Under the pieces are notes generated by a model. That model searched no databases and was not told where the DNA came from. It saw nothing but the letters and a program-made list of their open reading frames with translations. Shown here piece by piece: positions 37,101-59,166 of a stretch of DNA of 64,000 nucleotides. The stretch spans positions 385,762 through 449,761 of the forward strand of contig JADGBR010000001.1 in assembly GCA_015231405.1 (NCBI GenBank), given 5' to 3'. The DNA is from Candidatus Omnitrophota bacterium (lineage in GTDB: Bacteria > Omnitrophota > Gorgyraeia > Tantalellales > Tantalellaceae). How positions within the stretch are numbered: position 1 is the first letter of the stretch; the number at the start of each line of letters is the position of its first letter. A program made the position numbers and the translations under genes.

Positions 37101-40100
37101 TGGAGATGTGTCTTTCGACGAGGTGAAGGACGGAAAACACGGCTGGTTTAGGGAAGGGCGCGAGAACTTTCCGTCCGAATGGCAAGAGGTCGAACCTATT
37201 ATGCCGGACAGGGAAAGAGGAGAGAGCCTGGATGAAGCCGAGAATAGATTTTATGATGTACAGGCTCCAAGGGGGAACACGCTCGGCTGGTCCTTTAAAA
37301 GGGGGATAAAGGGGGGTGAGAGCGTTACAGGAACCGTTCAAATGAAAGCTAAAGGATACTTTGATTCAACGAACTGGGCCAGCCCCGCTCTCGACGTTGG
37401 CGAGTACTTGGCAAGTGGCAACGCTTACGCGATGAGGGAAGGGATGGAACCGTATTTTGACAGATACGATTCGCATAAAATGTCCGATATGGTGGAAAAG
37501 ATAACGTTAGGTCTGGCAAATACGGATCTGGTTCATATTTCGTTCGATTGGAATGGACGGCAATATATCGTTTCCGGCGGGGATGCGGGCATAAAGATAT
37601 GGGACATCTCGAGGGGAAAGGTAATGACGCTCAAAGGGCATGCGGGCAAAGTCACGAGTTTGCAGCTCATCGAGCGAAAAGGTAAAAAATACATCGCGAG
37701 CGGCGGCGATGACAATGATCGGACCATCAAACTCTGGGGGTTGGAGGATGGAGAAGAGTTGGGCATAGGTTTTGTGACAACGATCAGAGGGCATTCGGCC
37801 GGGATAATTAGTTTACGGGTGATAGGCGATAAATATCTTGTAAGTGGAAGTAATGATCTAACGGTAAAGCTCTGGGAGTTCGAGGGTGATGATGAGTTGG
37901 GCATAAACACTGTGACAACGCTGAAAGGTCATAGTGATTGGGTTAGAAGCCTGGAAGTGATCGGGACCCCCAAGGGGATATTATTCGCGAGCGGGGACAT
38001 GAACGGTAAGATAAAACTTTGGTCATTGACCGAGAGCGGGGAAGTGATCGCAGGGAACGTATTAACTATCAAAGCCCATGGCGGTTGTGTCCAGGCATTG
38101 AAGCTCATGAGATATGGTGAAAAGACGTATCTGGTCAGCGGAAGTTGGGACAAAAGCGTGAAGATCTGGGAACTGGGAGAGAAAGACAATGTGGATATAG
38201 CGGGAGTTACTGTCCTTAAAGGATTTAAGAATAATGTGCTGAGCCTCGAAGCCATTAGGCGCGGTGATAGGACATATCTGGCGACCGGAGGGGAGGAGGA
38301 CGGAATGGTAAAACTCTGGTCTCTATCAGGCGAAGCGGAGCTCAGTGTGGATGGAGTGACTATTCTTAAGGCGCATACCAAATGGGTCTCGAGTATACAG
38401 GTCATAGTACGTGACGGTAAGGAGTATCTTACCACCGGAAGCGGGGACGATACGCTTATTACCTGGGATCCTTTCCGCAAACAAAAATTCCACGAAGCCC
38501 TGGCCTACCTCGATGCTTGGGAAAGAAAGGTCGAAGGTCCCTCCTTCGTTAAGGCTTCGGAGGGCGGGCGAGGGTCGTCGGTCGAAGGGCCAATGCCCAA
38601 TGCTCCAAGCCCCCTGCCTGACCGGCAGGTAGGCATGCCCGAAGCCGGCCTTGGCGGCGGCGCCGACGACTCCAACGGCCCAGCTTTCAATGCCGTCGAC
38701 CCCGGGATGGACCTTCCCGAGGACAGGGACATAACAGAGGCCAGGTATAAGCTCAGGTCGCGGGGAAGAGCCATGCTCATATGCGAACCTGGTACGCGTG
38801 AACGCGTTATAGTCGACGAAGTGGCGCGGCTCGAAAAATTCAAATATGTTTATAAGCTAGAAGGGCGGCCGTCGCTCGCGCCGGAAGACCTTATAGGCTC
38901 GAAATACCCGGTCCTTGAGGAGGAGAAACGGGAAACGAACGAAGAATTCGTTTTCAAAAAGGGCTTCCTTACCCGGCATATGTTAACGGAGGAAGAACAC
39001 GCTAAATACCTGGAAGAAAAGTCCGCAGGGAAGGATTTCCCGAAAAAACTGCTAGTTATTTACAATATAGACGCTATCGGCGAGAAAGCCAGGGCGTCCC
39101 TCAACAATCTCTTATTGAACGGTTATCTGAACATTCCTTCGGTGGGCAAGCTCTGGTTGCCCGACAATGTCGAGATAATAGCGACGATGAGGGTCGGTTC
39201 ACAGCAGGAATTCTCGAGCGCCTTTCCGAACAGGATGACCAAAGGGAATATGTCCCCGATGGAAGCCAAGGGCTGGGGGGCTTCGGATTTCGCGAAATAT
39301 TGCCGGAATGTGTATGGGTTCGATAAATACGTTCTCGGGAAGGATGATAAAGGCAGACCTTACGATATAGCCGACGAAATTGAGCTTCTTTATGACAATA
39401 TCAGGAGCCAGGAGGTTACGGATCGCGTCTGGCCGTCGAGGATGACTTACGGTTTCACCGTCAAGGACGCTTTAACCCACGCCGAGTTCACTGCGCTCGC
39501 GATAGCGGAAAGAAAAAAGATGGGGCTTGGTGAGCCGGGGAAGGACGAGTTAATGAATATCCTGGTCGACGAGGCTATGAGGGTTTACGGGTTCAAGGTG
39601 CGGCAGTTCCCATCGGATTACGATTCGTTCGTCGATTCCATACTTAAGATGCAGTTTAGCCATAAATACGTGGAAAGGGCCGTTATCCGGGACGACGTGA
39701 AGATATCCGCCGGTAAGCTCAGGGAACTCTCTGGGATACCCATCTCGCCGGGTCACGGCGCTCTAGGAATGACGCTCATTGAGCGTAATTACCGGCTGAC
39801 GCTCGTCGGCAGCATGGTGGGAACTATGTCGGCGATGATAAGGGGACTTGCCGCCGGTAAAGTGGTATCGTTCACCGGGGATACCGGGGCCGCGAAGACG
39901 ACCATGGCGGTCGCGCTCGCGCGTATGACGGGCGTAAAGGATTATGTCTTCAGTATGCATAAGGACGTGAAGGAATACGATCTCACCGGAGCCGTCAGGA
40001 TGACCGATAAGGGCCGTTTTACTTTCGAGATAATGGAGTTCGCTAAACAGCTCGAAGAGGGTAACACCATGCTCATAGTCGATGAGGCCAATATCAAACC

Positions 40101-43100
40101 CGAGATACTCTGGCTCCTTTCCGGCATAGCCCGCGGCGAAAAACAGTTCACTATAGAAAGGCCCGGGGATAAGCCCCATACCTTTAATATAGGAGAGAAC
40201 GTGTACGTAGTATTCACCATGAACCCCGAAGCCTACGGAGGCGGGCGCGGGGCGATACCGATACCGCTCAAGGAGGATATATTTAATATTTGGGTGCCGG
40301 ACTATTACGAGTATCCGGAGATGGCGCGTATAGTCACGGAATTTTTCGGCGGCATGCCGGAGCTCGCCAATATTACTGAGATGACCCCGGCCGAAACCTC
40401 CAAGGCCTCGACCCTTGAATTGGACAACAGGTTTTTCGAGATAAAACGCCTCTTTAGCCATCTTTACGCCAGGATGGAAGTCGAGGACGTAGTCAACGCC
40501 ATATATGATAAAGGGTATGAATTTACAATAGGCACGTTATACGGCCTGACTAAGGATAATGACCCGGCAAAGGCCAGGGAGAAATACTATGAGCTGAAAC
40601 GGGTAGAGGAAGAAATAATGTACGATCCGAAGGTGCGGGGAAAGATGTTACGTATTAGGACAAAGGTCGCGCTAATGGAGAAATATCTCAGGGACAAAGG
40701 CATGACCGTCAGCGTGAATTTCAGTCTATTTACGTGGTGGAGTCAGGGTGTGCGTGAAAAGAACGGCAAAAAAGAAATAATAGTGAATGTCCCGCTATAT
40801 GAGCTTGTCGACAAGAAAGACCATCCAAATATCAGGAAAGAAGGCAAGTCCGACAAGGTCATCGCCGGGCTTATCATACACGAACTAAGGCACTATTTGT
40901 ACAGCCCTAAAGACAATCTCGAATGGCGCGATATCGGTGTTGATATCGGGATAAACAGTTTTGCCCCGGAGATAAGAGAGGTGTTTGACACGTTCACGGC
41001 AGATCCGAAGGATAGGACGGTTAAGCGCCGGAGGGATGTCTTTCAGCTTTGGAACGCTCTGGAGGATGTTCGTATAGATCTTATGGAAAGGGATTCGGAG
41101 CATTTCCGGAGGCTTAAGGGCGCGCAGGAGAACGTCGACGAGATGATAAAGGATATGTTCAAGGATGAGACGAATGACCCGGGAGAGTTCGAGAAGAGAA
41201 AGAAAAAGGCCGTACGCGCCGCCTGGCTCCATCCTCATGCAATGCTGAGGGACGTATTATTCCGCTACGGTTATACGGGGGAATTCGGACCATATTTCGG
41301 GTTTTTTGACGAAGAACTGAAAAAGGCCGTACAGGAATTGACCGGTGCTATGATAGAGGCGACTCAGTCGTCCAAAGCGCGAATGAACATGAGCGATGTC
41401 AGCTCAGCTGGGGATTTTCTTAAAGAAAGGCGGCGCGCGTCAGGGGAAAGCGTTAAAGTGATACTCGAAAAGATATTGCCGAAATATCTTGAGCTCGCCG
41501 AAGAGTCGAAGAAAAGGGTTGATGAGGAAAAAAAGAAAAAACAGGGAGGCCCGAAAGGAACGGAAGTTGAAGAAGGAGACGGGAGTGAAGGCGGAGGGGA
41601 TCCCGGCGAGGGAGGAGAATCCGGGGAAGGAGGAGCGGAAGGTCTAGGTTCGGGTGGAAAACAGGAATTCTTGTTCATGCCGCCTGAACTCATGGAAGAG
41701 ATGTACGGAAGCGGCGATGAAAATAGCGGGGACGAGGGCCAATCCGGAGGGAAAGGAAATACCGGGCCCATGATAATAAGCCCGGGAGCGAAGAACGGTG
41801 TGAGAAAACCAGGTGACGGCCTCCCTGAGGATATGACCCCCCACGGAGGATCCGCCGGTACCCCGGGGGACGATGGCGGCAAACAAAACGCCGGAGGAAA
41901 AGACGACTCTCCGGACGACACGGAGGGCGATGACAATGACGGCCCCGATACCGAGGGCATGTCAAAAGCTAACCGCAGCCGAGCGATCAAGGAAGCTTCT
42001 TCCAAGATCAACAAAGAGCGGCTCAAGGGTGAGCCTATCAATCAAAGGCTCTCCGAGGTCGGAGGCCAGGCTAAACAGCTCGCGGAAGGTCTGATCAATA
42101 TATTCAATGTGCCGGAAGAAACCGAGGTGGAAGAGTCCGCTTACGGCAGGATCATTAACATGATAAGGATCATCATGAAGAGCATGACCCCTTTCGACGA
42201 GGAAGTCGATACGGGTAACCGCCCGGATCTCGCGCTTGGAATGACGGCCGATCTTTCCGGAAGCATGAAGGATTTCTTCCCGGCGATAAAGAAACTGAGC
42301 GCCATTTTTATCAGCTCGTTCCAGCGGATAGGTAAAAAAGCCGATTTCTCGGTGACTTTGGACGGGCCCGACGAGAACGGCGTCGACCATCCCCACAATG
42401 TCATAGATTTCGGAGAGAAACACGCACAGGACGAGCTCAACGGCGTACAGAACAGGGTGGAAAAGACCATGGCGAGGGAAGGCGGCGGAGGGATACACGC
42501 TTACAGCTGTCTTGAAGCGATAGTAGAAAAACACAAACGGTCAAAACAGAAAAATAAACTTGAGGTCATATTCACGGACGCTATGGACACCGAAGGAATG
42601 GAGTCCGAGAGGGAAGAAAAATTCCGGGAAGCCGAAAAACTGGGTGTTTCCATTTTGGTCGTGGGTTTCAGGAACCAGCAGAACAAAATGCAGGAAGTGT
42701 TCGGCAAGCACGCTTCGTATATCCTGGTCGACAGGGATAAACCCGAAGCGATAATAGGGGTCGTCCTTAACGCCGCCAAGATAAAGGCCAGGACCGGCAA
42801 GATACCTAAGGGGAATATCGGCCCGATGTTCGACCAGAAAGAGGGCGGAATGCTTGTTCGTAATGCTATGGACCTTATAACGAACGACGACCTCAGCGTA
42901 AGGATGAAAACGGAGAGCGAGATAAACGCCATGCGGTCGCTCGCCGATGTTCGGAGAACGGCGCTATACGAGGCGCGGATGACCGTCAGACAATTCAGCG
43001 TCCGCGACAGGCTTGAAAAGCTTATTGCCCGGTCCCGTGACGCTATAAGCGACCTCTGGAGGAATAACGGCAAGGATATAGTCGTTATGCCCGACCTTCT

Positions 43101-43686
43101 CTCGGACCCGTCCGTCGGCCGTATAGCCAGGGGCGCGAAAGACTTCGATAAAAAATTCGAGCAGACCACCGTCCCTCTTTTGTACAAATACGCCGACGGC
43201 GGCGCGAAAACCGAAGATATGAAGAAGCCACTTACCAGGGTTTTCCTGGAAGCGATAGGGGAGTTCGGTAAAGGCGGAGGAAGGAACGGCATACTCGTTT
43301 ATTTCCCCGGGGCCCTCAAGGATACCGGCCTCCTGGCAGAAGTAATGTCGGATGACCGAATAGCTCCTTTCAAGGACCACATAACCGTCATATACGGCGA
43401 TTATACACCTGGCGACCGCATGGACATAGTTTCGCATATCATCCTAGCCAAAGCCCTTCTTAACTACAATAGATACAAAAAAGGGATATACGGCAAAGAA
43501 ATGGACCCCGACGCGATAATGCGCCTTCTCGAATACCTCAAACTCTTAGTCGACGACAAAAAAGAGATAACAGAATCATTCATTACCGCTCTCCGTAACG
43601 GCGCCATCCTAAAGATCCGCAAACTGGACGTCAACGACATAGCCGCCCAGGAATCCCTCCAAACCGCCTTCTGGAAATCCGTCTAA
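25198..43686 (+). CDS. Giant 6162-aa secreted midasin-like protein: signal peptide, shared N-terminal twin-GX2H domain, three MoxR-type AAA+ modules, tandem WD40 propellers, HExxH motif, acidic G/E/D-rich tract, C-terminal vWA/MIDAS
   Basis: Uninterrupted 18,489-nt ORF. Signal peptide MKFKNFVKITAILVTVSFLQQSTFGYAQ. GIIHIQDAHC (25414-25443) and TGGFH (26641-26655). Walker A: GATGAGKT (29233-29256), GPPGGGKT (31309-31332), GDTGAAKT (39877-39900). Walker B: VSEMN (module 1, Asp replaced by Ser), IFDEG (31540-31545), IVDEAN (40081-40086). HELRH (40879-40893). Acidic low-complexity tract EEGDGSEGGGDPGEGGESGEGG...DDTEGDDNDGPDTEG (41560-41960). MIDAS DLSGS (42250-42264) with downstream IFTDAMD. Confidence 0.92.
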   Translation: MKFKNFVKITAILVTVSFLQQSTFGYAQFEYGDSTITKTDLGGNVEEKSVSFVPSSLATIKRSYTGDDKNAPGIIHIQDAHCVYPCQERINTILEHLEKDRGIKRIFLEGGSGRYDLTVFRQIADRELRREVSEVFMKEGVINAAEYFAANSDREIELIGVEDPALYMRNLGVFRETNKSIADETGLLEKFKVLMKKIASGVFSEDLAVFYSFYEGHKTDKIGLAEYIMYLSKVTGAAPGMRSPDAGNIAKIMKISAMEKAVDFRKAEKERTDMLDHLFRTLPNSIKERLLTEMVAYKKGERLDLEFNEYLAGVFGNTGESAGVRHEELDKYIEYLREWSGVDSFKLMEEIPLMENEIKKRFAANAGERTLVDIWDRVEQTEKILGFKLVSDEYVRIKTDTFKYTFGGILEDMRKAFAVDFSEDIEDLVAELGKADRDNRLIKNVLGFYEYSFERDGVFIEEINNAGRQGNGAGDGVSVFMTGGFHTGNICSLLEKNGMSYVSVIPKFDNEEGSSERYFGILAGKREGLVGGITAAMSNLQVPTLLDQALGAEVWGKGGIGRMEAAVYVQTLVSKGYRVEIYDDVTGETLFSYGKGGKLIRCARTNFPREVHERFIAETEGDAGKAGIAGEEVADDANVNAENVGKVLKERVYLRDEELEALVSGVIDYHSKFNELLEGVRKAASDPARFKISIREIKRFSDDFKRIFLALVASGYERTDSLTTAIGYASRNIYMDMLDEKSPEYQAMARLMADTDILSIPGIVKGNGDNLFDRTYAKVARAIDSGIPALFIKDKDALGALERAIKKYSQKPGVKVVNMECTPASDSAQLIGGFMPKGRVDVAEAYKRVGMAISGKAALSIIEILAELLDKKKEEVTEKERKDFTEIYDEGKGDEGLIIAAAMVLEDPKSWRNKLVYEKGLLARIIDKCKEDKDTTYIFNIENIEALPGRIRAQLNAFLLTGELRVPGAPGKKDRKLIAPKNLRIIASMSDEAVLEDGAFYDRFLRKKVAGANEDDFRALAKKDLPEIKEDTVKFLLKFREELNSGVSECSLADLMGIVKYAAEAASVNGDSVDQLVIAAYETGKYFDAKGVSKEKRADHDSVVMTSFAAMNDDSSLAPGDVSGVLDLFWDPARPGSGPPTFAWGGPGGLDRATLIKILRHIAVVAGGKSEMTMGEMSGVFQDEFGALLNTEVVDRYKGKFGDKPVDEFVSLLVFAVDGNDRSGVIVNLLEPFGPAAGGAGTDIAELMKVKNSGMRYDRGEKKIIFDIYAPGLKINKDISDKLERYISDRVKQKGKGGFSPDDEDGAIRDFFMDELDYFIGTDEKRMLSAVARSMEYGNGVIRIEGATGAGKTYTAELLSRIMDFGDEVRSRFYSEPVNKETKLARFLGYFRADKFGYYSIDQTTPFLDILKYGGVAAVSEMNTSVKDEYAKLAWWFIQFARGDREIFLNEYPRKGENGAISPSIKRHPKALIIIDVNPEDYEGRGKFPRELIENTPSVYVDEKMNDLEHIKKVTRAFLKHIDDGEKKDALVDFIAGAHVKIFDKVKEANENGDRYPPLSYRELARVTKSIPAGLAMNESLVMAEKAVNKYYIKAFVSEQIKSDLKLGLLLWSATEERDEIIKDVLFGNPEGRSPPVLVTSSSDENPFEDIDSAVNMFKEENPDKELYRERVRVTWFDDEFKLFGGFLPISIREKASAAAERLKVLLADAGTRDKANGIYRELQAKSAQPVNDLPEDISGLGDNFILSLSEALDALRSGREWTQALRYENGIIPRLIDEAERERKAKGKDAKIFIIELENIHRIKPGLAVAFNSILQEGYYYDPASHTRKQVPANLKFVATSVSESPLPFSVAEESRWVRLKQTERVFDPLDTGSAFQGIIPAMIRDERKKRVEAGMPDGGEDPSTDDLNKVTQSVLAYLRPYFINHLTSSKEAKIFVADFIKELTSIPDMVKLIRDDDEGFLRLISRSFALSAAMSFRGQGAGDSVKKTCRGYFDTTLAGKEALEKDDLLEDIDELVRVEAATFHAFNSDRIVLYEGPPGGGKTDMAIDVARRLGLKDYLFSCHNRVHTSELLGTFSQRSNGDFYYTGVPDSDGHYPEADFLEAMTHGGVYIFDEGAIGKRAQELLSVLSVLARGEKLFMLNEIPGYPPKEINVHKDFHIIITMNPPEETVGREPLPLEVYDQARKIWINNGLTQDSYRRIIRKFLDLSAREFGITLSSLFGSDEPGASDAFADALTGIHKTINSLVGKKISLSENVNLHLVTLRDMKAMVKDMVRYSAKGANRTEAFRIAVRNAYIDQFNRLRDRPGIADELGKLFRVDAMTGTRDVLAANGINIDVFLAGLIERELDKRYLDINELGGDESPGAILNEAPLVGPIPALDHPFGIDGSDIAETYEEPEQLRAPQCFSSNEFMKTRVDYTVKEMIVSPLSGPAGKTILGLVCGLWNYTLGRLFGRIIPLGRSKFSSGNFRVSTVKKVRGGADVQYNRPESGEWQPLMAKTDRSLDQYLGRIRASANPFVRYELPGNNRGERCVTSLKIGGREHLAFIDENEHKTVNIADMSRPGLTSSIVSLSAGRSDISYIKAIYIGKKQYLAVCHVGGEMALWDLSRKGKEKVIYLNFGWDVQDIAGIDLHGQNCIAILHAYKLTGRVLSDGCIRVIDLGTGEIRSVDLPKGYFREGKIFSENDSGKNKLFVNGRTNEVYMYDLDTKKLSMGLTDRKTIAPGDVSVFGMGKTFSVMPAEIPDTNGREGVALLDWDSSVQWVYPLELPHNKVKVMAEVRSGEKTYLVIAAGKGIVLWDVMGKSYKSVEYPFDGHIQRITALGDTGLFAVTDNHGTVRIWDIDIERHIAETRVKAEALERGEIPAGNDLPYGLKKRDLYGPEKFLGIKEEVETGIAPRAESGASCVYSGIQLKAGKSEKVRSGGDITKFREALVSDREARLFTRELSKEEIVAIPSANIVDIDKDASWGPGVLDMDNIFVELGATRGESLFFRVEKLSDQLERNDIHEIRELRMALDDKQEKVASGVIDVAGLSCLLTTDIKGVISLWDLKNDNVVRLKVCDNLVDKLVVMKNREGDVELVVPGDNNQLLFLRFAGGSGGIIPAGMRRVNTTADISGLDVIRDDKERDCLVFAGTEKLIAEPGQISYGLDRYPTLKVLSFTGETSGYITEIKAHPEAPGVLNVVKDDMGLGRLVSGEKFNMKLWGFAWKDGRIEGGSVSKFQVEGLAMENGTLIKDDIGRSHLVLPVKYENGRRLIMLDFDFKNGVLKGGISRTVDLKLKDISGVTAISDLDGDDRVVVSCDNSVIKMIGFDWDNGEIKGANSITFENPDSGGDIYGVHTFRAEDGTEYLVARRSGGRLDLWDPFIADKLAEARDLYDSGERSQAADTTPPLSAEALAKANAPSPMPAIPHGFTREQLLQEQDWHGEKVVLLKGDIVKGIPMEDIRKGDKYGWYGESYEKDPTVTGEVIHLTNGPADGLSIMTKTGKMVKGKERKFKKLGTPEKGNTLGWSMTRKIHEGELGTGKFERKDEEFFRLMNRDDQGDETRRHIDAGNAYIMTGEIMDEIDHGDPRKVSDMAEKIKHDSEVNEIKVFKCRGREIIVTTCLTNFIRIWDIEKNKVTTILGHNNVIFGLELLERSDKVYLVTGSSDNMIKFWALNAVGEVDRDHVTTLHGHSDSINDIRVIEREDGVYLVSASEDKTVKFWKLKGAGGIEFSEVTALKGHSGQVTKLEFFARDKKLYMASGDRVGAVKIWAFRGKSGADMESVTTLPEMKMDVSDLRILECAGKMYLAAGEGNGNIKLWGFAGDAGVNISGVTTVRVCNNGFGVMSSGGRTWLVTGGSDAVVKLLEISGKEGEDVVKGMTVLKGHGSYVTGVYVFEREGKQYLATGSEDKTFIVWDPFREEKFHEARAVVEAWERSHASDPMLQAPSSIPEAPSPMPDIPHGFTREQLLLEQEWHSEEAVLVNGDVSFDEVKDGKHGWFREGRENFPSEWQEVEPIMPDRERGESLDEAENRFYDVQAPRGNTLGWSFKRGIKGGESVTGTVQMKAKGYFDSTNWASPALDVGEYLASGNAYAMREGMEPYFDRYDSHKMSDMVEKITLGLANTDLVHISFDWNGRQYIVSGGDAGIKIWDISRGKVMTLKGHAGKVTSLQLIERKGKKYIASGGDDNDRTIKLWGLEDGEELGIGFVTTIRGHSAGIISLRVIGDKYLVSGSNDLTVKLWEFEGDDELGINTVTTLKGHSDWVRSLEVIGTPKGILFASGDMNGKIKLWSLTESGEVIAGNVLTIKAHGGCVQALKLMRYGEKTYLVSGSWDKSVKIWELGEKDNVDIAGVTVLKGFKNNVLSLEAIRRGDRTYLATGGEEDGMVKLWSLSGEAELSVDGVTILKAHTKWVSSIQVIVRDGKEYLTTGSGDDTLITWDPFRKQKFHEALAYLDAWERKVEGPSFVKASEGGRGSSVEGPMPNAPSPLPDRQVGMPEAGLGGGADDSNGPAFNAVDPGMDLPEDRDITEARYKLRSRGRAMLICEPGTRERVIVDEVARLEKFKYVYKLEGRPSLAPEDLIGSKYPVLEEEKRETNEEFVFKKGFLTRHMLTEEEHAKYLEEKSAGKDFPKKLLVIYNIDAIGEKARASLNNLLLNGYLNIPSVGKLWLPDNVEIIATMRVGSQQEFSSAFPNRMTKGNMSPMEAKGWGASDFAKYCRNVYGFDKYVLGKDDKGRPYDIADEIELLYDNIRSQEVTDRVWPSRMTYGFTVKDALTHAEFTALAIAERKKMGLGEPGKDELMNILVDEAMRVYGFKVRQFPSDYDSFVDSILKMQFSHKYVERAVIRDDVKISAGKLRELSGIPISPGHGALGMTLIERNYRLTLVGSMVGTMSAMIRGLAAGKVVSFTGDTGAAKTTMAVALARMTGVKDYVFSMHKDVKEYDLTGAVRMTDKGRFTFEIMEFAKQLEEGNTMLIVDEANIKPEILWLLSGIARGEKQFTIERPGDKPHTFNIGENVYVVFTMNPEAYGGGRGAIPIPLKEDIFNIWVPDYYEYPEMARIVTEFFGGMPELANITEMTPAETSKASTLELDNRFFEIKRLFSHLYARMEVEDVVNAIYDKGYEFTIGTLYGLTKDNDPAKAREKYYELKRVEEEIMYDPKVRGKMLRIRTKVALMEKYLRDKGMTVSVNFSLFTWWSQGVREKNGKKEIIVNVPLYELVDKKDHPNIRKEGKSDKVIAGLIIHELRHYLYSPKDNLEWRDIGVDIGINSFAPEIREVFDTFTADPKDRTVKRRRDVFQLWNALEDVRIDLMERDSEHFRRLKGAQENVDEMIKDMFKDETNDPGEFEKRKKKAVRAAWLHPHAMLRDVLFRYGYTGEFGPYFGFFDEELKKAVQELTGAMIEATQSSKARMNMSDVSSAGDFLKERRRASGESVKVILEKILPKYLELAEESKKRVDEEKKKKQGGPKGTEVEEGDGSEGGGDPGEGGESGEGGAEGLGSGGKQEFLFMPPELMEEMYGSGDENSGDEGQSGGKGNTGPMIISPGAKNGVRKPGDGLPEDMTPHGGSAGTPGDDGGKQNAGGKDDSPDDTEGDDNDGPDTEGMSKANRSRAIKEASSKINKERLKGEPINQRLSEVGGQAKQLAEGLINIFNVPEETEVEESAYGRIINMIRIIMKSMTPFDEEVDTGNRPDLALGMTADLSGSMKDFFPAIKKLSAIFISSFQRIGKKADFSVTLDGPDENGVDHPHNVIDFGEKHAQDELNGVQNRVEKTMAREGGGGIHAYSCLEAIVEKHKRSKQKNKLEVIFTDAMDTEGMESEREEKFREAEKLGVSILVVGFRNQQNKMQEVFGKHASYILVDRDKPEAIIGVVLNAAKIKARTGKIPKGNIGPMFDQKEGGMLVRNAMDLITNDDLSVRMKTESEINAMRSLADVRRTALYEARMTVRQFSVRDRLEKLIARSRDAISDLWRNNGKDIVVMPDLLSDPSVGRIARGAKDFDKKFEQTTVPLLYKYADGGAKTEDMKKPLTRVFLEAIGEFGKGGGRNGILVYFPGALKDTGLLAEVMSDDRIAPFKDHITVIYGDYTPGDRMDIVSHIILAKALLNYNRYKKGIYGKEMDPDAIMRLLEYLKLLVDDKKEITESFITALRNGAILKIRKLDVNDIAAQESLQTAFWKSV
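25400..26740 (+). other. Shared N-terminal domain (copy 1 of 3 in window) with twin GX2H motifs; hypothesised Tiki/TraB/GumN/EreA-like
   Basis: The motifs GIIHIQDAHC...EGGSGRYDLTVF and VFMTGGFHTGN...YVSVIPKF are conserved in the N-termini of the 6162-, 2263- and 1992-aa proteins. Confidence 0.55.
32750..33750 (+). other. Degenerate WD40-like beta-propeller region (module A) in giant protein 2
   Basis: Weak WD-like blades: LAVCHVGGEMALWDLS, IVLWDVMGKS, TVRIWDIDIERH. Much less regular than modules B and C. Confidence 0.4.
35950..36910 (+). other. 7-bladed WD40 beta-propeller (module B) in giant protein 2
   Basis: Blades end in IRIWDIEKNKV, IKFWALNAVGE, VKFWKLKGAGG, VKIWAFRGKSG, IKLWGFAGDAG, VKLLEISGKEG and FIVWDPFREE. 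LKGH/LHGH motifs precede each blade. Confidence 0.8.
37530..38480 (+). other. 7-bladed WD40 beta-propeller (module C) in giant protein 2
   Basis: Blades end in IKIWDISRGKV, IKLWGLEDGEE, VKLWEFEGDDE, IKLWSLTESGE, VKIWELGEKDN, VKLWSLSGEAE and LITWDPFRKQ. Classic GH...WD spacing. Confidence 0.85.
42230..42720 (+). other. C-terminal vWA/MIDAS domain of giant protein 2, immediately preceded by an acidic G/E/D-rich tract (41560-41960)
   Basis: LALGMTADLSGSMKD (DxSxS), then LEVIFTDAMDTEG and VSILVVGF beta-strands. An acidic tract followed by a MIDAS domain mirrors eukaryotic midasin/Rea1. Confidence 0.7.
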
Positions 43687-43829
43687 AGGAAATATATCCT
43701 GCAATATATCGCGAATAAATGTCCCCTCGAGCCTGATCAAATTCCTGAATAACAGGACGAAATCCTGAAAATGAAAAAGCGTTTTTTTGTTATTTCAAGA
43801 TATCATCTGGCGCAAATTCAGCTTAGAAA

Positions 43830-44095
43830 GATCTGGATTTGCCAGTACCAATGATCCAGCGCAAATCGAGGACATCAGCCCGAGATTTGCCAATCCAGCG
43901 CAAACCGAGAGCCAACAGCCCGAGATTTGCCAATCCAGCGCAAACCGAGGGCCAACGCCCGAGATTTGCCAATCCAGCGCAAACCGAGGGCCAACGCCCG
44001 AGATTTGCCAATCCAGCGCAAACCGAGGGCCAACAGCCCGAGATTTGCCAATCCACCTCAAACCGACCCGAGATTTGCCAATTCACGTTCCACAC
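43830..44095. repeat. Tandem repeat array, about 6 copies of a 39-40-bp unit (CCCGAGATTTGCCAATCCAGCGCAAACCGAGGGCCAACG[C]), with degenerate first and truncated last copies
   Basis: Unit starts (CGAGATTTGC) at 43881, 43921, 43960, 43999, 44039 and 44069. Copies are directly abutting with no spacers. The array lies in the convergent intergenic region after the ORF2 stop (43686). Confidence 0.85.
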
Positions 44096-44105
44096 TCATA
44101 GCTAA

Positions 44106-44236
44106 CCGAGATTATCGGACATTATGCCCAAAGCTATTACGAACCAAGCATAATGTCGGATAATCTCGGTCATATTATCGGATGTTGTGGTTCCCAAAGC
44201 AACTCCCCGAGCCAGAACCACAACGTCCGATAATAT
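44106..44236. other. Two adjacent long hairpins (22-bp stems, 20-21-nt loops) sharing a TTATCGGA/TCCGATAA core
   Basis: Hairpin 1 arms are 44106-44127 and 44148-44169 (CCGAGATTATCGGACATTATGC / GCATAATGTCGGATAATCTCGG, 1 mismatch). Hairpin 2 arms are 44172-44193 and 44215-44236 (ATATTATCGGATGTTGTGGTTC / GAACCACAACGTCCGATAATAT, 1 G:U-compatible mismatch). Both loops begin CCAAAGC. No flanking T-runs. Confidence 0.7.
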
Positions 44237-44283
44237 ATGTTATGTTAACTTGGCGTATGTGTAGCTGGTAAATAAGTATTGAA

Positions 44284-44739
44284 TTATTTTAAAGCGGTTT
44301 TAATATACCCAATGAACCTTTCAAAATCCGGAAGACGGTTTTGTACCATATCATATAGCTTATTTATATCTATCTCGAGATACTCATGGACGAGTATATT
44401 GCGGAAACCTGCCATCCCTCGTATCTCTTTAGCGAACTCCGCCGGAATGACATTTTTTTCGCCAAGTTTGACGATAACATCGGTATAGTCCTCGATCCCG
44501 TTCTCGCCGATCTCGGCAAGGACATGGTTCCCTATATCTAACAGACACTGAATGGCGATCTGAAGGCCGCGTTCAATTGCCCACTTATCGAAACAGGATG
44601 TTCTTATCTTTTCAAGCGGTACAGACCGGAGTCTTTTAAGATCATGAACAGTTCTTGTCAACTCGTCGATCTTTTTAATGATGATTTGAATATCTACCAT
44701 TTCCTCACCTGTATGCCTCAAATAGGGGTTTAACGTCAA
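44284..44739 (-). CDS. hepT: HepT-like (DUF86) RNase toxin of a HepT/MntA toxin-antitoxin pair
   Basis: 151-aa ORF with the Rx4HxY motif (FRNILVHEY, ~44380-44403). It overlaps the upstream MNT gene by 35 nt; an alternative start at the internal Met near 44700 would give a 4-nt gap. Confidence 0.75.
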   Translation of the reverse strand: MTLNPYLRHTGEEMVDIQIIIKKIDELTRTVHDLKRLRSVPLEKIRTSCFDKWAIERGLQIAIQCLLDIGNHVLAEIGENGIEDYTDVIVKLGEKNVIPAEFAKEIRGMAGFRNILVHEYLEIDINKLYDMVQNRLPDFERFIGYIKTALK

Positions 44740-45094
44740 GATAACGCCTGAGCGCGTCCACCTGCAGATGGATCCGTCTTTTTTCGTTCCGTGAATAAAT
44801 AAGCCGGCCGCGCGCGATGATCCTGTGCTTCAGGAGGATCGAAGCCTCGTCGATGATAACGAGATCGATATTATTAGTTTTTAAGAGTCCCATCAGGTCG
44901 GCTATTATGTGAGCTTTGTAACTGTATGGATATTCAGCCTCATTTATGATATCCCTATTGATGTCTATCGCGATATCGATGTCGCTAAGAGCGTTATTTT
45001 TACCGGAAACGGTCGATCCGAAGATATATGCTATCTCTATTTCTTTCATCTCGGCGAAATAATCCTTTAGTATAGGCGTATAAATCTTAAGCAT
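44705..45094 (-). CDS. mntA: MntA-like minimal nucleotidyltransferase antitoxin
   Basis: 129-aa ORF with the NTase motif GSTVSGKNNALSDIDIAIDI (GS...DxD). Located immediately upstream of hepT on the same strand and overlapping it. Confidence 0.75.
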   Translation of the reverse strand: MLKIYTPILKDYFAEMKEIEIAYIFGSTVSGKNNALSDIDIAIDINRDIINEAEYPYSYKAHIIADLMGLLKTNNIDLVIIDEASILLKHRIIARGRLIYSRNEKRRIHLQVDALRRYLDVKPLFEAYR

Positions 45095-45256
45095 AATTAA
45101 TTATAACATGGTGTCACGGGCTCAACAATAGACGAATTTAAACCATTCAAGTTAGAACGCGCGTAATACCGAAGGAATAGTACAGGCGCATTCGCCGGCA
45201 ATGGATCCGCTGACAAATACGCTCATTTGGGAGAATATCCAATTAATCGCTAGATA

Positions 45257-48200
45257 TTATAGCGATCTTAATACTTCTGTTTCGGCCTTATAGAATTCTC
45301 TTATTTCATTTACGTTAATAGGCCTTATCACCACAAGGATCTCTCCTGAAGCAACCAGCCTCCTCACTTGCTCAGAGTCCTTTGGAGCGATCATGTCCAG
45401 AAAATCCATATAATTTACCGTACCTGACATTAACGCCAGTCTTTTAGCGAAAAGCTCCGTCGCCTCGTTGATATCTTCCAGGTAAAGGCTTACATCGGTA
45501 GGCGCTCTCTCTAACCTGCTAGCCCAATGAGCGCTGTCCAGGTAGGCTATGCCCGCCAAGATCGACCCCTCAACCGGCTGTGTTTTTTTTCCTTCCGGGT
45601 TTTCGGTGCCTAAGTAGACCATATAGGCGTTTTTTTCAACTTCTTCATTCCTCATGTCTCCTTCGTTCCTTGATGTGAACACAATGGCTTTATTAACGCC
45701 GTATTGTTCTGTCATGGCAGCTATATCATGTACTTCATCGGGATTTGTCTCGTCAAAGAAACGTATCGTTATATTTCCTAATTTCAATTCCTTTATTTTG
45801 TCGCTTGCCGCGCCTCTGACTTCCTGTATATACCCCTGAAGTACAGAGTCAATTTCACCGGCCGCCTCGGCATTACGGCCTATTCCTATAAACGTCTCTT
45901 CGCCTTCAAAAATATTTTTCGAACACTTAGCAAATATACCCATGTCAAGATCTTTGGCCTTCGCCATGAGGTCCATGAAAATGTCGCTGTCAACGCTTAT
46001 CGGTTCAAGCCCATTGACCTTGATGACGATTGACGGCTTTTCGATATTTTTCAACGCGCTCGTTTCTCTTTCTACGCTTGGCTTTTGGCTGTTGATCTCA
46101 TGCGCAGATACTCCGCCGTTTTTGCCTGGCATTTTAGCGCTGGTCACTTCCTCATCAGGAACATCTCCCGCTGGCACACCGGCGAAAGTCGGAACTTGGC
46201 GGTTACCTGGCTTACTCATCGCGTTTATCACTATGGATTTCTCCATCTCGTCACGGTTTGACATGCGGTCTAGCTCATACTGGCTTGCTTCATACGCTTT
46301 TATAATATCATCCTTTACATCGGATTCCAGGGCGAGCGAGTTTATGTTGTCATGCAGAACCTTAAGAATAGCTTTAAATACCGCAAAGTCTTTCATTATC
46401 TCATCTGTACCTATTCCGCCTCTTTCTTTCGTGTCAAAGGCTTTGTTTAAAAGTATATCCGTAAAGCCTCCCCAAGGGTTCTTTAAGCGCCATTCAGCGT
46501 TAATATTCCTGAGCATGTCAATAATCGCGTTCCTTTGAAGCGCATGGATCTTATTCGCCGAAAGTCCCCTTCCGTCCCCGGAAGGTTTCATGCCAAGGAT
46601 CTTCACCAGGTCTCTCTTCGTCTGAAAGGTATTTATGATCGTACCCACGCTGTCTGCCTGCAGATTGAACAGGAATTTTCTTCTTGCTTCATCAGCTATC
46701 TCCGCAAGGTCATCCCATTCGCCGGATACCATCTTTATGACCAGGTCGTCATCACCGAATCTGGATCTGTCTTTGCCGACCACATCACGCCAGAAAATGT
46801 CCTCATTCGATACGGCAGTATCTCCCTTAAAACGAAGGTCAGATTTTTTTATCTTGAATTTGGCTTTTGTTCCGTTAAAGGTCTCGGCGTCTTTTACGCC
46901 GATTATCTCTAATTCACCGTTTTTCAATAAGCCCAGTAGAAAATCGTGTATCTGTTTGTTGTATCCCACATACTGATACCCTCTTGCCTTTTCGCCTTCA
47001 AGCCAGGCCTGATGAGTCTGTTTGGCAAGTAAAGCCAAAGCGTCATTCCCGGCCGAATCATATATGGAGCGTGTTTCATTAACAAATTTATCACGCATAT
47101 CTCCGCTTATTTTCTGCAGACTTTTCAAGGCATCATAGTTGGTCAAGCCGTTTTTCATCCGGGCAATGATCTCCCATTGCCGCACATTCCATTCTTCAGC
47201 CATGGCGTAAAACACATCATAGCTGAATGAACCTTGAATTACCGCTTTATCGGCAAACATATCCGTAAGATCTTTTACGGTCTTAGGCACCAGGTTGAGC
47301 TTAACATGTTTCAGGCTATTGATGTTTTTACCGGCCCTTACCCTGAAATCATTGTCCCCTTTTTGATAGACCTCTGTAAGGTTTCTAATAGATCCCGAAT
47401 AGAGGCTTATGACCTCATCCTCAACGCCTAGAGCTTGTAATCTTTCCGTTATTGCCTGGGCAACCTTCCTTTTTGCGGCGTTTTCGGTCAAAAAACTCTC
47501 CGCCGCCAATGCGCCTGATATATCCTCACCTATACCGCTAAGGCTTTCGACCTCCGGCCTTTCCCGGGTATTTTTTAATATTTCCGCTTCCAGTGCCGCT
47601 TCAGAATCGAGCTCTAAAAGTATGTCATTTATCTTTTCGGCGTCTTTCTGAAGAATACCCACCACCCCGGGGTTTAAGGCATATTTTCCAATATCCTTTC
47701 CGAGAACCGCGAATATTGCCTTCATTACGTCAAAATCTTTTTTAATTTCTTTCACGCCTATGCCGTTTTCACTTACGTCAAATGGCCTGTTCAGTAATTT
47801 ATCGTTATATCCTCCCCAGGGATTTTTCAACCTCCAAACGGCGTTTATATTTCTAAGCATTTCGATCACCGCCTGTTTCGCCTCATCGACGTTATCTGAT
47901 ACCATTCTGCTCATTAGTTCCGCGTCCTGCATAGCGTTAATGATCGCTCCTACGCTGTCTGCCTGCAGCTGGTAAAGGTAAGCCTTTCTTCCGGCAGGAT
48001 CTATGCCTTCAACATTATCGGCTATCTCAACTAGATCATCCCAGCTGCCGGCTATATTCTTTATTACAATATCTCCATCATCAAATGTATCGGCTTTTTT
48101 CCCTATAAGCTTCCAGAAGTCTGCCGCGGAATTGCCGGGCCTGAATTTAAGATCATTTTTCTTTATTTTAAACTTGGTCTTAGCGCCGTTAAAAGCGTTA

Positions 48201-51200
48201 ACATCGGCTATCCCTTCTATAGTAAGATCTCCCGCTGCCATCATCTTTACGATACCCCTATGAATAGCGATGTTATACCCAACGTATTTATCTCCTCTGG
48301 CCTTTTCGCTTACCAGCCAGGCTTCATGGGTTTCTTTCGCGAGTAGCAGTAATGCCTGGTTATCACTATCGTTGAGTTCTAATGTGCCGGATTCGAACGC
48401 CTTTCTCAATCTGTCGTTCTCAGCCTTTACCTTCATTAACCCCTCATATACGGGTAACGCCCCTGCCAAACGGGCCTCTACCTCTATTACGTCGGTATCC
48501 CAAGCCTTTGACAAAGCAAGGATGATGTCTGAGTTCACTTTATCTTTTACCTGCTGGGCGCTTCCAAACACGCCTTCCAGACTCCGGCCGTTCCCTAAAA
48601 CATTGACAAGGTCTTCTAATGTGACAAATTTTGCTTCTTCGATCCTCTTTTTGCAATAATCATACACCTCTTTTTCGAAATCACCCCATTCTTTTTCCTC
48701 TGTATCGCTGATCCACTCTATTTTCGTTGCCCTTCTGCCTTTTTCTTCTTTATGATATTCTTCTATAAGATTCAGAACATCCGCCGGCATCATATTGTCG
48801 ATCATGAATTTCATAAGATTCATCATGCCGTCTCTATTTTTACCGAACTTGACTTGCGCCCAGGCCCAGCGATGCGAACCGGCAACCTCAACGCTGCCTC
48901 TATTCCTGCGGTCCTTAACTTCATGTTCTTTTAAAGCCTCCAGCATAGCCGGATCCGATTTAAGCATTTCCATGGTCTCTCTGGTAACACAAATATCAAT
49001 TTCATCAACATTCCTGCGCTTTTTTCTTATTGCGAAATTGATCTTCCGGTCCGCGTTAAAGAATACCGGCTCAGTATGCATATTCGGTTGTAATACCCTG
49101 AAATGAACCTTATAACCGTCATAAGGAGAACCCTTTTCGCTGTATACCAGATCCTGATAACCTTCTTCCGGAAGCGAATTATTGAACACATCCTGAGCTG
49201 TCTGCCTTGGGTCGCCTGCCGTATCCCTAACCTGGTCGCCTATCTTTACGGCGGCTGAATTTTCGCTGCCGGTTATATGAGCGCTTGTTATCTCACTTAT
49301 ATTCAAAATAATATTTTTAAGATCGCCGTTCACTATCATGGCGTCCTGTTCATTTTCCGGCTTTGAGCCTTTGTATATACCCACGCTAACCGTTCTAGCT
49401 GTTTCCCCGTCACCTTTCATGTCCATCTTAAATGAAACTAAAAGATTGTCTGCCTTATCGATCTCACTTCCTGAAATAACGACATAAGACGATTCTGTCT
49501 TGCCTCCTAGCGCCGACTCATTCCATTCCTGCTGGACAATGAAATTCTCGCCTCTTCCAATTTTCGCCAAAACCGCTACCTGCCTTTCTATGCGCGCCCG
49601 GTCAGGGCTTTCTACATCGGAAAACGCCGACAGTATCGCGATATTGGCATTCGCGGGATTTAAAGCCATTACCATGTCCAAAAACTTGTCAAATTCCGAG
49701 ATATCGCCGGATAATAATCTGAAATATGGACAGCCTTCGTACACCTTGAATTTAGGCATCACGCTGATATATGAATATCCTTCCGCCGCGCAAAGTTCGC
49801 GGAGATTGCTTTTATGAAAACCTCCTGTTACGAGCACCGCGATATTGGTACCGTCGGCAATCAGCTTATCGTTTATCTTTGACATGAACGCTTCATCGCG
49901 CTCAAAGGAACAGTCATAAAATTTTTCCATCTGCTGCATAAAACCGTCCAGTCGATCGATACTTTCCGGAAGCTCAGAGGCAAAACCGTGTTTCCTGTTG
50001 AACCCATTAAACAACCTTTTAATGTTAGATACGCTGAATTCGCTTTTGTGGCTTTTGTAATAAAGGTAAGTGTCTTTTACCAGGCCCGCTCGCAGTAGAT
50101 CCCCGATTATTTCTAAATGCTTCTCAATGAGATACAGATCTTTCTGGTCATCCTCGCTCATAAGAGATAGCATAAGTTTCTCCTCGATCGCGGCGAGCTC
50201 TTTATGAAGCATTGCTTTATCAATTTTTTCAAACTGCTCAAGATACGCAGAATATTTGACCAGATTAGGCAGCTCATCGAAATCAATAAGCTCCTTCCTC
50301 GCCTTCCTAAAAAGATATTTATACAGATCATCTTCATTAATGTCCTTCGTCCCGGCCTTCAAAGACATCATCGCTAATTCTTGTTCGTCATTTCTGGACA
50401 GCTTTTTGCTCAGCTTTTCGGTCAAAAGGTTTCTTTCCTGTCTCGCCTTCCTGAAATCTATATATTGTTCCTGCTCGATAACCTTTACCAGATCATTAAA
50501 ATGCCCATATCCATCCATCGATACGCCATAAGTGCCGCAGTTTTTATTTAAAAGCAATACCAGTTCTTTAAATCCGTCTTTTTTGCCCCTCTGATCTTTA
50601 AGGCTCCCGCTGACCTGTATCATTTCTTTTGAATAAATCTTGCTTCGGTAATTTAAAACCATGCTCGTTAACGTATTGATATCTTTTTCAGCTTCATCTT
50701 TAAAAGACATGGAATCCCTGAAAGCATTGAGGTTTTTAAAATATAGCTCAGGCATTTCCACCCCGAAAAGTTCTACAGCCTCCGGATTTAATAATTTAAA
50801 GTATTCAGGTCCGCTTAGGCGTCCTTCCCTCACAAAATAATCGGCTATTTCCTCTCTGATAGCGGTATCCTGAATGTCAGTGAAAACTGAAAGATCATAT
50901 TGCCCGCTTCCACCTTCCAGAAAAACAAGGTCTACCCCGTGATTGGCCGATAAATATCCGATAATATTTGAAATGGACTTTTGCGCGAAGTAATTACAAT
51001 GCGCGTCTTGAATATGCAGAATTGTTTTTCCGTTTGTGCCTGGAAGAACATCCTGTACACTGCCCATGCTTAAAGGTATATCCAAGCCGGCAATATCTGG
51101 CGGCACTTGTGCTTGCAGGTTTTCAGCTTTGGCTGAAGTCTCAAACGAACCGAAAGAAAATAGACTAAACATAAAGAAGACCGAAGTTGCAAGTGATACG

Positions 51201-51235: not shown

Positions 51236-51440
51236 GGCTTAATCCTTATTATGCATTATTTGTTTAATCACACGGAAGATGCAAATTAGACAATTATTCG
51301 CCTTAATATCTAATCTACCTTGTTATTAAACTTACCCTGAATGTGTGTTTAAGTAACTTTTCGAAGTATAACTGATGGTTATTCTGTCGTTCAGACTGTG
51401 TTCGGTGAATTTCATACTGTGAAACAGTCTGAATTCTGAA

Positions 51441-58232: not shown

Positions 58233-58335
58233 ATAAAATTAGTCCATTAAATATACAGGTAGACTCATAATCAAGTTTACTGATGAAAAAGAATAAAACA
58301 AAATAAATATATAACTATTTTAAAGACTAACGATA

Positions 58336-59166
58336 TTACTTTTGTTGAAGGACAAGTGAATTGTTTTCGGGGTCGATCTTGATGTGAAAATCCCTTAAAA
58401 AAGACATTCCGAGAAGACCGTCATGGTCAGTGTTCGAGGAAGTCTTTTCGATCATAATGGCGGCTTTGACATTTTGAGAGGAAACGTTCCCTACCTTGAT
58501 CGACACTAATTGGATCGGGAGGCATTGGGCCGTGCTTTTGTCAGCGAGTTGTATCGAGATAGGCTTTTCACCTTTTGTGTCCATATGAAGCTTTTCGGCT
58601 ATATAAGGCGAAATAACGACGATGCTGGCTCCGGTGTCAAGTAAAAGTCTTGCCTCTACCCTGTTGTTAATAAGGGCGGTCACGATTATTCTCGAGCGGT
58701 CAGTGTACCTGATAGTGGTAGAGGACCTATGCGCGGCCTCAAGATCGAAGAACCGCTTAAAATATTCGTTCTCGGTCACTTTACGTAACGCGGATTTTTC
58801 CTTACTGTTATCGGTGCTGTAAAATTTCCAGTCACTGATCAAGGCTTCTTTTTGGCGCGAATCTGACGGGGTAATGATTTCAACGATATCTTCTTTTGAA
58901 ATGGATGTTTTGCCGTAACCCAGGTCCAGGATCATTCCCGTATCTTTTTCTTCTTCAATGACGCCGAATATCTTCCCTCCGCTTTTAAGTTTTACTATAA
59001 CGACGTTCAGATCTTCCATGAGGGAAATTTTCTTATCCGTAAGGCTGTCGACTTTTTTCGAATAGAAATAATCATTTAAGAACGTCAATATCGGGGCTTT
59101 GAATTCTATAAAGACCAAAAGAGACAGGATAGTAAGTAGCAAAAATAATCTTAAGAATTTAACCAT
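58336..59166 (-). CDS. Membrane-anchored retropepsin-like (clan AA) aspartic protease
   Basis: 276-aa ORF with N-terminal TM anchor MVKFLRLFLLLTILSLLVFIEF. Active-site motif LLLDTGAS (DTGA at ~58627-58638), followed by ...IVVISPYIAEKL and DGLLGMSFL, typical of pfam13650/13975-type bacterial retropepsins. Located immediately upstream of, and co-directional with, the 2263-aa gene. Confidence 0.75.
   Translation of the reverse strand: MVKFLRLFLLLTILSLLVFIEFKAPILTFLNDYFYSKKVDSLTDKKISLMEDLNVVIVKLKSGGKIFGVIEEEKDTGMILDLGYGKTSISKEDIVEIITPSDSRQKEALISDWKFYSTDNSKEKSALRKVTENEYFKRFFDLEAAHRSSTTIRYTDRSRIIVTALINNRVEARLLLDTGASIVVISPYIAEKLHMDTKGEKPISIQLADKSTAQCLPIQLVSIKVGNVSSQNVKAAIMIEKTSSNTDHDGLLGMSFLRDFHIKIDPENNSLVLQQK

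Follow-up and report, generated by a model that had tools for sequence, protein, structure and literature searches.

In plasmid F, the protein SopB binds the partition site sopC at twelve 43-bp direct repeats, through an inverted repeat of 16 bp within each (PMC3177203). At the plasmid recombination sites cer and psi, the XerC side of the core is flanked by accessory DNA of about 180 bp (PMC9113270), and type III toxin–antitoxin (TA) loci are ordered as a tandem array, a Rho-independent terminator and a toxin of the ToxN/CptN/TenpN family, all on the same strand and under one promoter (PMC5086642). A tandem array that bears some likeness to each of these systems lies in a 64,000-nt stretch of DNA from a Candidatus Omnitrophota bacterium (GenBank assembly GCA_015231405.1, contig JADGBR010000001.1, forward-strand positions 385,762–449,761), which is called the window below. 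An original prediction, made from the letters of this window, had described directly abutting 39–40-bp repeats in a convergent intergenic region and had offered several roles for them, from an iteron or protein-binding array to a phase-variable element or a recombination site at the edge of an inserted TA cassette. The analysis reported here favours, with about an even chance of being right, a lineage-private minisatellite that was made by slippage in the spacer of a chromosomal dif site and has no dedicated function.

The array is real. Tandem Repeats Finder (TRF) reported a tandem array at 43854–44066 with a period of 39, 5.4 copies and 94% matches, and its score of 363 was the highest in the window, the runner-up reaching only 73. 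The 39–40-bp array was thus present where it had been predicted, as four full units with edge copies. The spacer after the 6162-aa open reading frame (ORF; stop at 43686) and next to a HepT/MntA gene pair, in which it had been placed, was likewise as described. Read from left to right, with no strand assigned to any unit, the array consists of the following parts.

43802–43829, no strand: possible oldest, strongly decayed relic unit, in which ATCATCTGGCGCAAAT is similar to ATGATCCAGCGCAAAT (81% over 16 nt in the repeat search; weak evidence)
43830–43878, no strand: u0, a degenerate leading unit with a 10-nt insertion (GATCTGGATTTGCCAgtaccaatgATCCAGCGCAAATCGAGGACATCAG); nhmmer match at 43836–43871, E = 0.001
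43879–44036, no strand: u1–u4, four near-identical head-to-tail units (consensus CCCGAGATTTGCCAATCCAGCGCAAACCGAGGGCCAACG), found by direct reading, TRF, nhmmer and unit alignment
43879–43918: u1, 40 nt
43919–43957: u2, 39 nt
43958–43996: u3, 39 nt, exactly equal to u2
43997–44036: u4, 40 nt
44037–44066, no strand: u5, a 30-bp truncated unit with 2 substitutions; nhmmer E = 1.4e-5
44067–44104, no strand: u6, a degenerate trailing unit conserved only in its first 16 nt (CCCGAGATTTGCCAAT); nhmmer E = 0.019

The consensus given in the original prediction is exactly that of u2 and u3, and the central copies are as close as it had stated, with u1 and u4 differing from u2/u3 by one substitution and/or one 1-nt indel (38–39 of 40 positions match). 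The core copies are 95–100% identical, and the edge copies retain 24–33 matched positions over 38–53 alignment columns (32–33 for u0 against the central units). The u5 truncation lies exactly between the two CCGAG motifs that a unit contains; every CCGAG motif in the array has the same orientation, facing dif. A 31-nt core, searched with up to 3 mismatches, occurred 5 times in the array and 0 times in 100 shuffles, while an nhmmer profile of the unit run over the whole window retrieved exactly 7 copies, all of them in the array. The central units are about 60% G+C, poor in T, and richer in C than in G on the + strand (14 C vs 10 G). The junction between units forms a 30-nt imperfect palindrome with 10 of 13 pairs, which folds with z = −1.1 on the − strand and −2.6 on the + strand relative to shuffles. 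The units abut directly, and the 9 nt that separate their palindromic parts do not vary from unit to unit. A CRISPR (clustered regularly interspaced short palindromic repeats) array was therefore rejected, as the original prediction had done for the lack of spacers; no Cas family was found in Pfam, PADLOC and NCBIfam scans of the neighbouring ORFs.

Mis-assembly, of either the copy number or the whole array, is very improbable. The source is a metagenome-assembled genome (MAG), and u2 and u3 are identical, as an artefact might make them. However, the array contains three distinct full-length variants, and its truncated and decayed edge copies grade into unique sequence. In addition, the longest exact self-repeat in the array is 78 nt, so that reads or k-mers longer than about 80 nt are able to resolve the copy number; standard 100–150-nt reads or large k-mers bridge it, and the host contig is 491 kb long.

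The array is non-coding. All six frames are free of stop codons through units u1–u4, and this accounts for the ORFs that the original prediction had noted in every frame and called spurious. The alternation of 39- and 40-bp units breaks any reading frame, and family scans matched no protein family to these ORFs. A phase-variable element, one of the roles proposed for the array, is not supported, as the array lies downstream of both convergent genes, where there is no promoter or ORF for its length to affect.

Relatives of the unit were sought in 185,579 species genomes, JGI metagenomes, viral contigs, plasmids and phages. An exact 28-mer of the unit was absent from the 185,579 species genomes, an exact 26-mer was absent from the JGI metagenomes, and plasmids and phages gave no match when searched with the whole spacer by blastn. 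In viral contigs, a pattern of three GATTTGCC at unit spacing gave 49 matches, all of them unrelated tandem repeats of mostly short period, this tolerant pattern being too unspecific for large collections. The 19-mer TTTGCCAATCCAGCGCAAA gave 5 single sites in viral contigs, all unrelated, and the viral matches as a whole were either unrelated coding repeats or unrelated single sites. A pattern for the hairpins described below and an extended dif sequence had zero matches in viral contigs. A unit profile run over 176 fetched loci found no copy except the five unrelated viral sites retrieved by the exact 19-mer. A metagenome scan with dif and its lineage-specific right flank returned one unrelated locus, which was repeat-free, and no repeat was seen downstream at the one Omnitrophota HepT homologue locus examined.

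From this anatomy, together with the lack of relatives, we infer a slippage origin and the lack of a dedicated function. One segment of about 39 bp would have been duplicated, and replication slippage or unequal exchange between sister strands would since have added and removed copies and kept them alike. The direct repeats inside the unit (CCGAG...CCGAG) and the weak palindrome probably favour such turnover. Slippage or unequal exchange leads to a near-identical centre, decayed or truncated edges and 1-nt indels between units, as observed here. On this account the array would be neither the recombination site nor part of the HepT/MntA module, and at most it would form a C-rich 3′ trailer of the giant-gene transcript and padding between the giant gene and dif.

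The spacer in which the array lies also holds one canonical Xer site.

44223–44250, + strand: chromosomal dif site, with XerC arm ACGTCCGATAA, centre TATATG and XerD arm TTATGTTAACT, recognised by consensus, position weight matrix (PWM) and conservation

This site was compared with the proteobacterial dif consensus, DBBBCSBATAATRTAYATTATGTHAANT, and it agreed at 27 of 28 positions, with 1 mismatch. When up to 3 mismatches were allowed, the site was the single match to this consensus in the window, where 0.01 were expected. Compared with the E. coli dif sequence GGTGCGCATAATGTATATTATGTTAAAT (PMC3325230), 19 of 28 positions are equal, including 10 of 11 in the XerD arm. At least 120 species genomes contain its 22-nt core, CSBATAATATATGTTATGTTAA, with a single copy at each fetched locus; calculated from the size of the collection, about 0.4 chance matches were expected. 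At least 24 of these genomes are labelled Omnitrophota, and the others include Planctomycetota, Victivallales, Kiritimatiellia, Deltaproteobacteria, Gemmatimonadota and some Bacilli. A PWM built from the sites of the core-bearing genomes scored the window site at 41.5 bits and the next best site at 12.9 bits, a uniqueness that covers the 64-kb window. In the same PWM scan, no second dif-like site with both arms was found anywhere in the window, including on either side of the TA pair. Taken together, consensus, matrix and conservation identify 44223–44250 as the chromosomal dif site with high confidence.

The dif site stands at the exact junction of a + strand gene block (776–43686) and a − strand gene block (44284–59166), and the cumulative GC skew in the window is maximal at dif. 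In curated Omnitrophota genomes, nearly all genes of each replichore lie on one strand (bioRxiv 10.1101/2023.11.21.568195), so that gene convergence is the appearance expected of a terminus. The dif locus is thus probably the replication terminus. The proposal of an iteron array fails at the same place, since the window scans revealed no rep gene, the gene blocks converge, and the cumulative skew has a maximum rather than the minimum of an origin. The proposal of a recombination site stands in part: an XerCD dif lies between the array and the TA pair, but the array itself is not that site.

The convergent genes are separated by 597 bp, the largest non-coding stretch in the nearly all-coding window, and for this reason a shared spacer is weak evidence for a link between the array and dif. 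From the array end to the dif XerC arm there are 157 bp (118–157 bp), with two hairpins in between, and from the hepT stop codon to the dif XerD arm there are 33 bp. On the XerC side, the array and hairpins follow one another as an uninterrupted structured block of about 420 bp; on the XerD side, there are just the 33 bp.

A further copy of the dif XerC arm with the first three central bases, ATATCCGATAATAT, was observed in direct orientation 6.7 kb rightward (50954–50981, + strand). It lies within the N-terminal coding part of a 1992-aa ORF, without an XerD arm, and could be a chance match or a decayed pseudo-dif.

The two hairpins, found by an inverted-repeat search and folding, are as follows.

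44105–44170, no strand: hairpin H1, with 23-nt arms and a 20-nt loop, 96% complementary
44172–44236, no strand: hairpin H2, with 22-nt arms and a 21-nt loop, 95% complementary

They are the sole long inverted repeats in the window, which contains no further copies of either. H1 begins with ACCGAGATT, 39 nt after u6, and its arms contain the XerC-arm-like sequence ATTATCGGAC; it folds at −33 to −36 kcal/mol with z of about −9 on either strand, and the folds of H1 and H2 are 7 to 10 standard deviations better than those of shuffles on both strands. H1 and H2 align end to end as a tandem pair of 67 bp, both loops start with CCAAAGC, and two A–T pairs of H1 become G–C pairs in H2, which is a compensatory change. 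All four arms contain ATTATCGGA, and the XerC-arm sequence TCCGATAAT is found in all four. By this alignment, the two hairpins are paralogues. The dif XerC arm with 8 nt of flank serves as the right arm of H2, which is thus an inverted copy of the XerC side of dif. Local duplication of the kind proposed for the array would also have produced H1 and H2; the tandem pair and the inverted XerC copy in H2 show that the spacer is prone to such events.

Two other assignments of the hairpins were rejected. They are not of the integron attC type, as their arms lack the RYYYAAC...GTTRRRY core sites, contain no bulges and are 95–96% complementary; no integrase was found near them in the window ORF scans. 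A sequence link between the array unit and H1 was also rejected, with the sharing limited to CCGAGATT and marginal k-mer support (P of about 0.03).

The surroundings of dif were then compared with those of other dif sites, using the 120 dif-core matches listed and TRF on 1.5 kb on each side. Among these matches, no comparable tandem array lies within 1.5 kb of dif, the best arrays being two copies of 33–34 bp. Blastn of the spacer against the same 120 matches found nothing, and tblastn of all window proteins against them showed no synteny. Nor does any of the 120 have a comparable hairpin involving the XerC arm (at best 12 nt, vs 22 nt in the window). The repeat density of the XerC flank, measured as the number of nucleotides covered by recurring 9-mers in 450 bp, is 270 nt in the window, 245 nt at one other locus (L101) and 18 nt at the median among the matches listed. 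A repeat-rich XerC flank is missing in 118 of the 120 dif loci and in 23 of the 24 Omnitrophota among them.

The locus L101 belongs to the Omnitrophota MAG nHGRbin18 (JADFZK010000049.1), with the repeat-dense XerC flank at 3050–3493. A motif of about 20 nt, AATATAATGTGTCCCGGTT, occurs there in 4 direct and 3 inverted copies and forms hairpins with 22–23-nt arms and 20-nt loops. A tandem TCCCGGTTATT × 3, an expansion of the end of the motif, abuts the XerC arm. A further hairpin formed by the motif lies at 770–844, 2.3 kb from dif, and for this reason the motif looks like a dispersed family of repetitive extragenic palindromic (REP) type. A relationship between H1/H2 and the L101 hairpin motif was rejected, as the nhmmer similarity was not significant.

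Three other dif-bearing loci showed features of their own. In an Omnitrophota MAG (L086), a CRISPR array with a 61-bp period, containing GGCGGTTCATCCCCGCGCGTGCAGGGAAC, lies 1255–1407 bp to the right of dif. In an uncultured bacterium (L147, CAYNWJ010000486.1), the dif XerD arm and 9 nt of flank pair perfectly with their inverted copy over 21 bp, around a 3-nt loop, at about 3035–3079 in dif orientation; this hairpin mirrors H2 on the XerD side. In a Sphingomonadales MAG (JADKCA01), two contigs (L167 and L169) share the same dif core and the same left flank, ctaaataagtCCGATAAT; this duplicate could reflect two replicons, a dif-integrated element or assembly redundancy.

The one-sided position of the array bears on a protein-binding role, which the original prediction had also raised. 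In this explanation, the array would act together with dif or the terminus, either controlling XerCD synapsis in the manner of cer and psi, or organising, anchoring or blocking replication in the manner of sopC, parS or Ter sites. An architectural or accessory protein would bind the units, perhaps together with the XerC-arm-like half-sites of H1 and H2. We consider this role unlikely. The array and hairpins occupy the XerC side of a canonical 28-bp XerC-6-XerD site, as does the accessory DNA of cer and psi (PMC9113270), the structured flank measures about 420 bp against 33 bp on the XerD side, and all CCGAG motifs are directed towards dif. However, the accessory DNA of cer and psi is not tandem-repeated, directly abuts the core, and binds PepA with ArgR or ArcA. 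The layout also recalls sopC (PMC3177203), with spacer-less direct repeats of about 40 bp that each contain an imperfect inverted repeat, and with an array that adjoins other classical stability functions, here a dimer-resolution site and a TA pair. The differences from sopC are that the scans of the window ORFs revealed no parA/sopA, parB/sopB or other gene for a DNA-binding protein, that the unit palindrome is weak, and that the setting is terminus-like and not a plasmid partition locus. A polar motif of the KOPS (FtsK orienting polar sequences) type was rejected, as no unit-derived 6–8-mer in the window is skewed between strands beyond the coding-strand purine bias, and a fork trap should flank dif on both sides, whereas the repeats lie on one side only.

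The XerC flank of L101 is also dense in repeats and hairpins of the same geometry, with 22–23-nt arms and 20-nt loops, which is in favour of a role at dif. Against such a role, the L101 motif also occurs 2.3 kb from dif and has no significant similarity to H1/H2, and 118 of the 120 dif loci among the matches listed are without such a flank, suggesting that dimer resolution there does not generally need one. Chromosomal dif sites act with FtsK and do not require accessory DNA. A related possibility, which we hold to be improbable, is that the array and H1/H2 together constitute one undescribed accessory or architectural module on the XerC side of dif, which would load extra XerC or another protein in some Omnitrophota and so control dimer resolution, or organise or arrest replication at the terminus. 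In these genomes, the replichores are strictly strand-polarised and giant genes run into the terminus. If so, the L101 flank would be an analogous, sequence-divergent instance of it.

The stable hairpins behind C-rich repeats could alternatively belong to an RNA element, either a Rho-loading (rut-like) trailer on the + strand, with H1/H2 as pausing or stabilising hairpins, or a 3′ untranslated region or small RNA on the − strand, downstream of mntA–hepT, that acts as a CsrA-type sponge or as an RNA partner of HepT; this we judge to be quite unlikely. For the + strand form, the units have C > G and are followed by two very stable hairpins within 150 nt, and no canonical intrinsic terminator was found for either convergent gene. 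The sole terminator-like feature is a weak mini-hairpin of A-tract, GCG and T-tract (GAAAAAGCGTTTTTTTG) at 43773–43789, between the giant-gene stop and the array, which could serve either direction. However, the C > G bias begins within the coding region, about 400 nt ahead of the stop codon of the giant gene. For the − strand form, the unit RNA contains one GGA per unit (GCUGGAUUG), in a 9-mer that is unpaired in both alternative folds, and three further CAGGA(U/A) motifs lie on the − strand at 43690–43770, where a short direct repeat, AATTCCTGAA / AAATCCTGAA at 43740–43769, gives − strand CAGGA motifs. Against the RNA explanation as a whole, Rfam showed nothing credible over the spacer, either at the gathering threshold or at E ≤10, with the CsrB and Rsm families included, and no promoter-like site was seen in the spacer. 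A CsrB/RsmZ-type sponge was rejected on these two results and on the GGA context, CUGGAUU, which lacks the usual upstream A.

The resemblance to type III antitoxin arrays (ToxI, CptI, TenpI, antiQ) belongs to the same RNA explanation. The locus has about 5.5 repeats of a 35–45-nt unit, then a palindrome, and an RNase toxin as neighbour, and with an array followed by a palindrome it has the first two of the three parts that make up such a locus (PMC5086642). A type III array was nevertheless rejected, as H1/H2 are without a U tract, there is no promoter-like site, and no credible + strand ORF or type III toxin-like gene follows the hairpins; ORF scans matched no ToxN, CptN, TenpN or AbiQ-like gene. 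The RNase next to the array is instead HepT, which is encoded on the opposite strand and belongs to a complete type VII pair. HepT/MntA is a protein–protein pair that needs no RNA, and the one homologue locus examined is repeat-free. Genes of the two converging blocks are listed here.

776–16144, + strand block: 5122-aa ORF
25198–43686, + strand: 6162-aa giant ORF, left neighbour of the array and last gene of the + strand block
44284–44700, − strand: HepT, HEPN RNase toxin of a type VII TA system, right neighbour (Pfam PF01934 at 7.7e-30; NCBIfam NF047751)
44705–45094, − strand: MntA, nucleotidyltransferase antitoxin of the type VII TA system (Pfam PF18765 + PF01909; NCBIfam NF047752)
45257–51235, − strand block: 1992-aa ORF, no Pfam match
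51441–58232, − strand block: 2263-aa ORF with FHA domains

Both TA proteins exceed the cut-off of 60 of their NCBIfam equivalogs, HepT with 114 bits (NF047751) and MntA with 84.7 bits (NF047752), and they form a complete type VII TA pair that touches dif on its XerD side. HepT is 100% identical to MBF0215722.1, and its next best homologues are 55–56% identical; a search of 5.8 billion proteins found no homologue of the C-terminal 700 aa of the 6162-aa protein. Both observations point to sparse sampling of the lineage. On the − strand, a perfect extended −10 element (TGTTATAAT) at 45100–45108 ends 5 nt before the mntA ATG (45094), which points to a leaderless mRNA for the TA operon. Further along the − strand, at 58336–59166, a 276-aa protein has a retropepsin-like aspartyl protease domain (PF13650, PF13975) and matches the PADLOC candidate family PDC-M08B.

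The TA pair and the hairpins also bear on an insertion at dif. The array and hairpins, possibly with the TA pair, would be the debris of at least one element that decayed after its integration at dif, such as an integrative mobile element exploiting Xer (IMEX). TA modules are frequent cargo of Xer-dependent modules, such as the pdif modules of Acinetobacter. The structured block and the TA pair each directly abut dif, three extra XerC-arm copies are contained in H1/H2, and ATATCCGATAATAT at 50954 is a direct copy of the XerC arm and part of the central region. We nonetheless consider such an origin improbable. The window has no second two-armed site (12.9 vs 41.5 bits), the 50954 site lacks an XerD arm and lies inside the 1992-aa ORF, and the extra half-sites in the hairpins are inverted, not direct. 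Neither the region nor the dif variant has similarity to phages, plasmids or viral contigs, and the ORF scans revealed no integrase, replication or filamentous-phage gene nearby. No tRNA or tmRNA that could be an integration target was found in the window. The proposal that the array marks the edge of an inserted TA cassette is, for its part, not shown, as no second dif-like site bounds the TA pair.

Several points weigh against the slippage-made minisatellite. Missing homologues are weak evidence in a poorly sampled lineage, and the unit search in the source genome spans 64 kb, so that a dispersed REP-like family may exist elsewhere in it. The array, H1, H2 and dif form a contiguous block on the XerC side. 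The array and H1 keep a 39-nt register and both start with CCGAGATT, and the repeat-dense XerC flank of L101 could hint at a recurring architecture. Finally, the near-perfect identity of the four central units could reflect selection rather than homogenisation.

As a minisatellite, the array as such matters little, being an orphan for which neither relatives nor signs of a function were detected, although as a likely variable number tandem repeat (VNTR) it could be used as a strain marker for the source population. The dif site is of wider use, as it anchors the replichore structure in an uncultured genome of Omnitrophota, a phylum with giant genes and strand-polarised replichores. Its 22-nt core is common to phyla of the Planctomycetota–Verrucomicrobiota–Chlamydiota (PVC) group, Deltaproteobacteria, Gemmatimonadota and some Bacilli. 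Moreover, two Omnitrophota dif sites have XerC flanks rich in repeats and hairpins, among them the inverted XerC-arm copy in H2; if functional, these flanks would represent a new kind of chromosomal Xer accessory region.

Among repeat families, REP elements and bacterial interspersed mosaic elements (BIMEs) are comparable in that hairpin-forming units accumulate in convergent intergenic regions. However, BIME units alternate in orientation and occupy many loci, whereas the array units are all direct and have no second locus in 64 kb, and the window offers little other intergenic DNA in which dispersed copies could show. The closest likeness is to VNTRs and minisatellites such as those of the mycobacterial interspersed repetitive unit (MIRU) type, which share with the array intergenic non-coding units of tens of bp, a homogenised centre, decayed edges and indel variants. 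MIRUs are multi-locus families, whereas the array unit is known from one locus, adjoining dif. Although the unit itself was not found elsewhere in the collections searched, the array is most likely an intergenic minisatellite, a known type of element.

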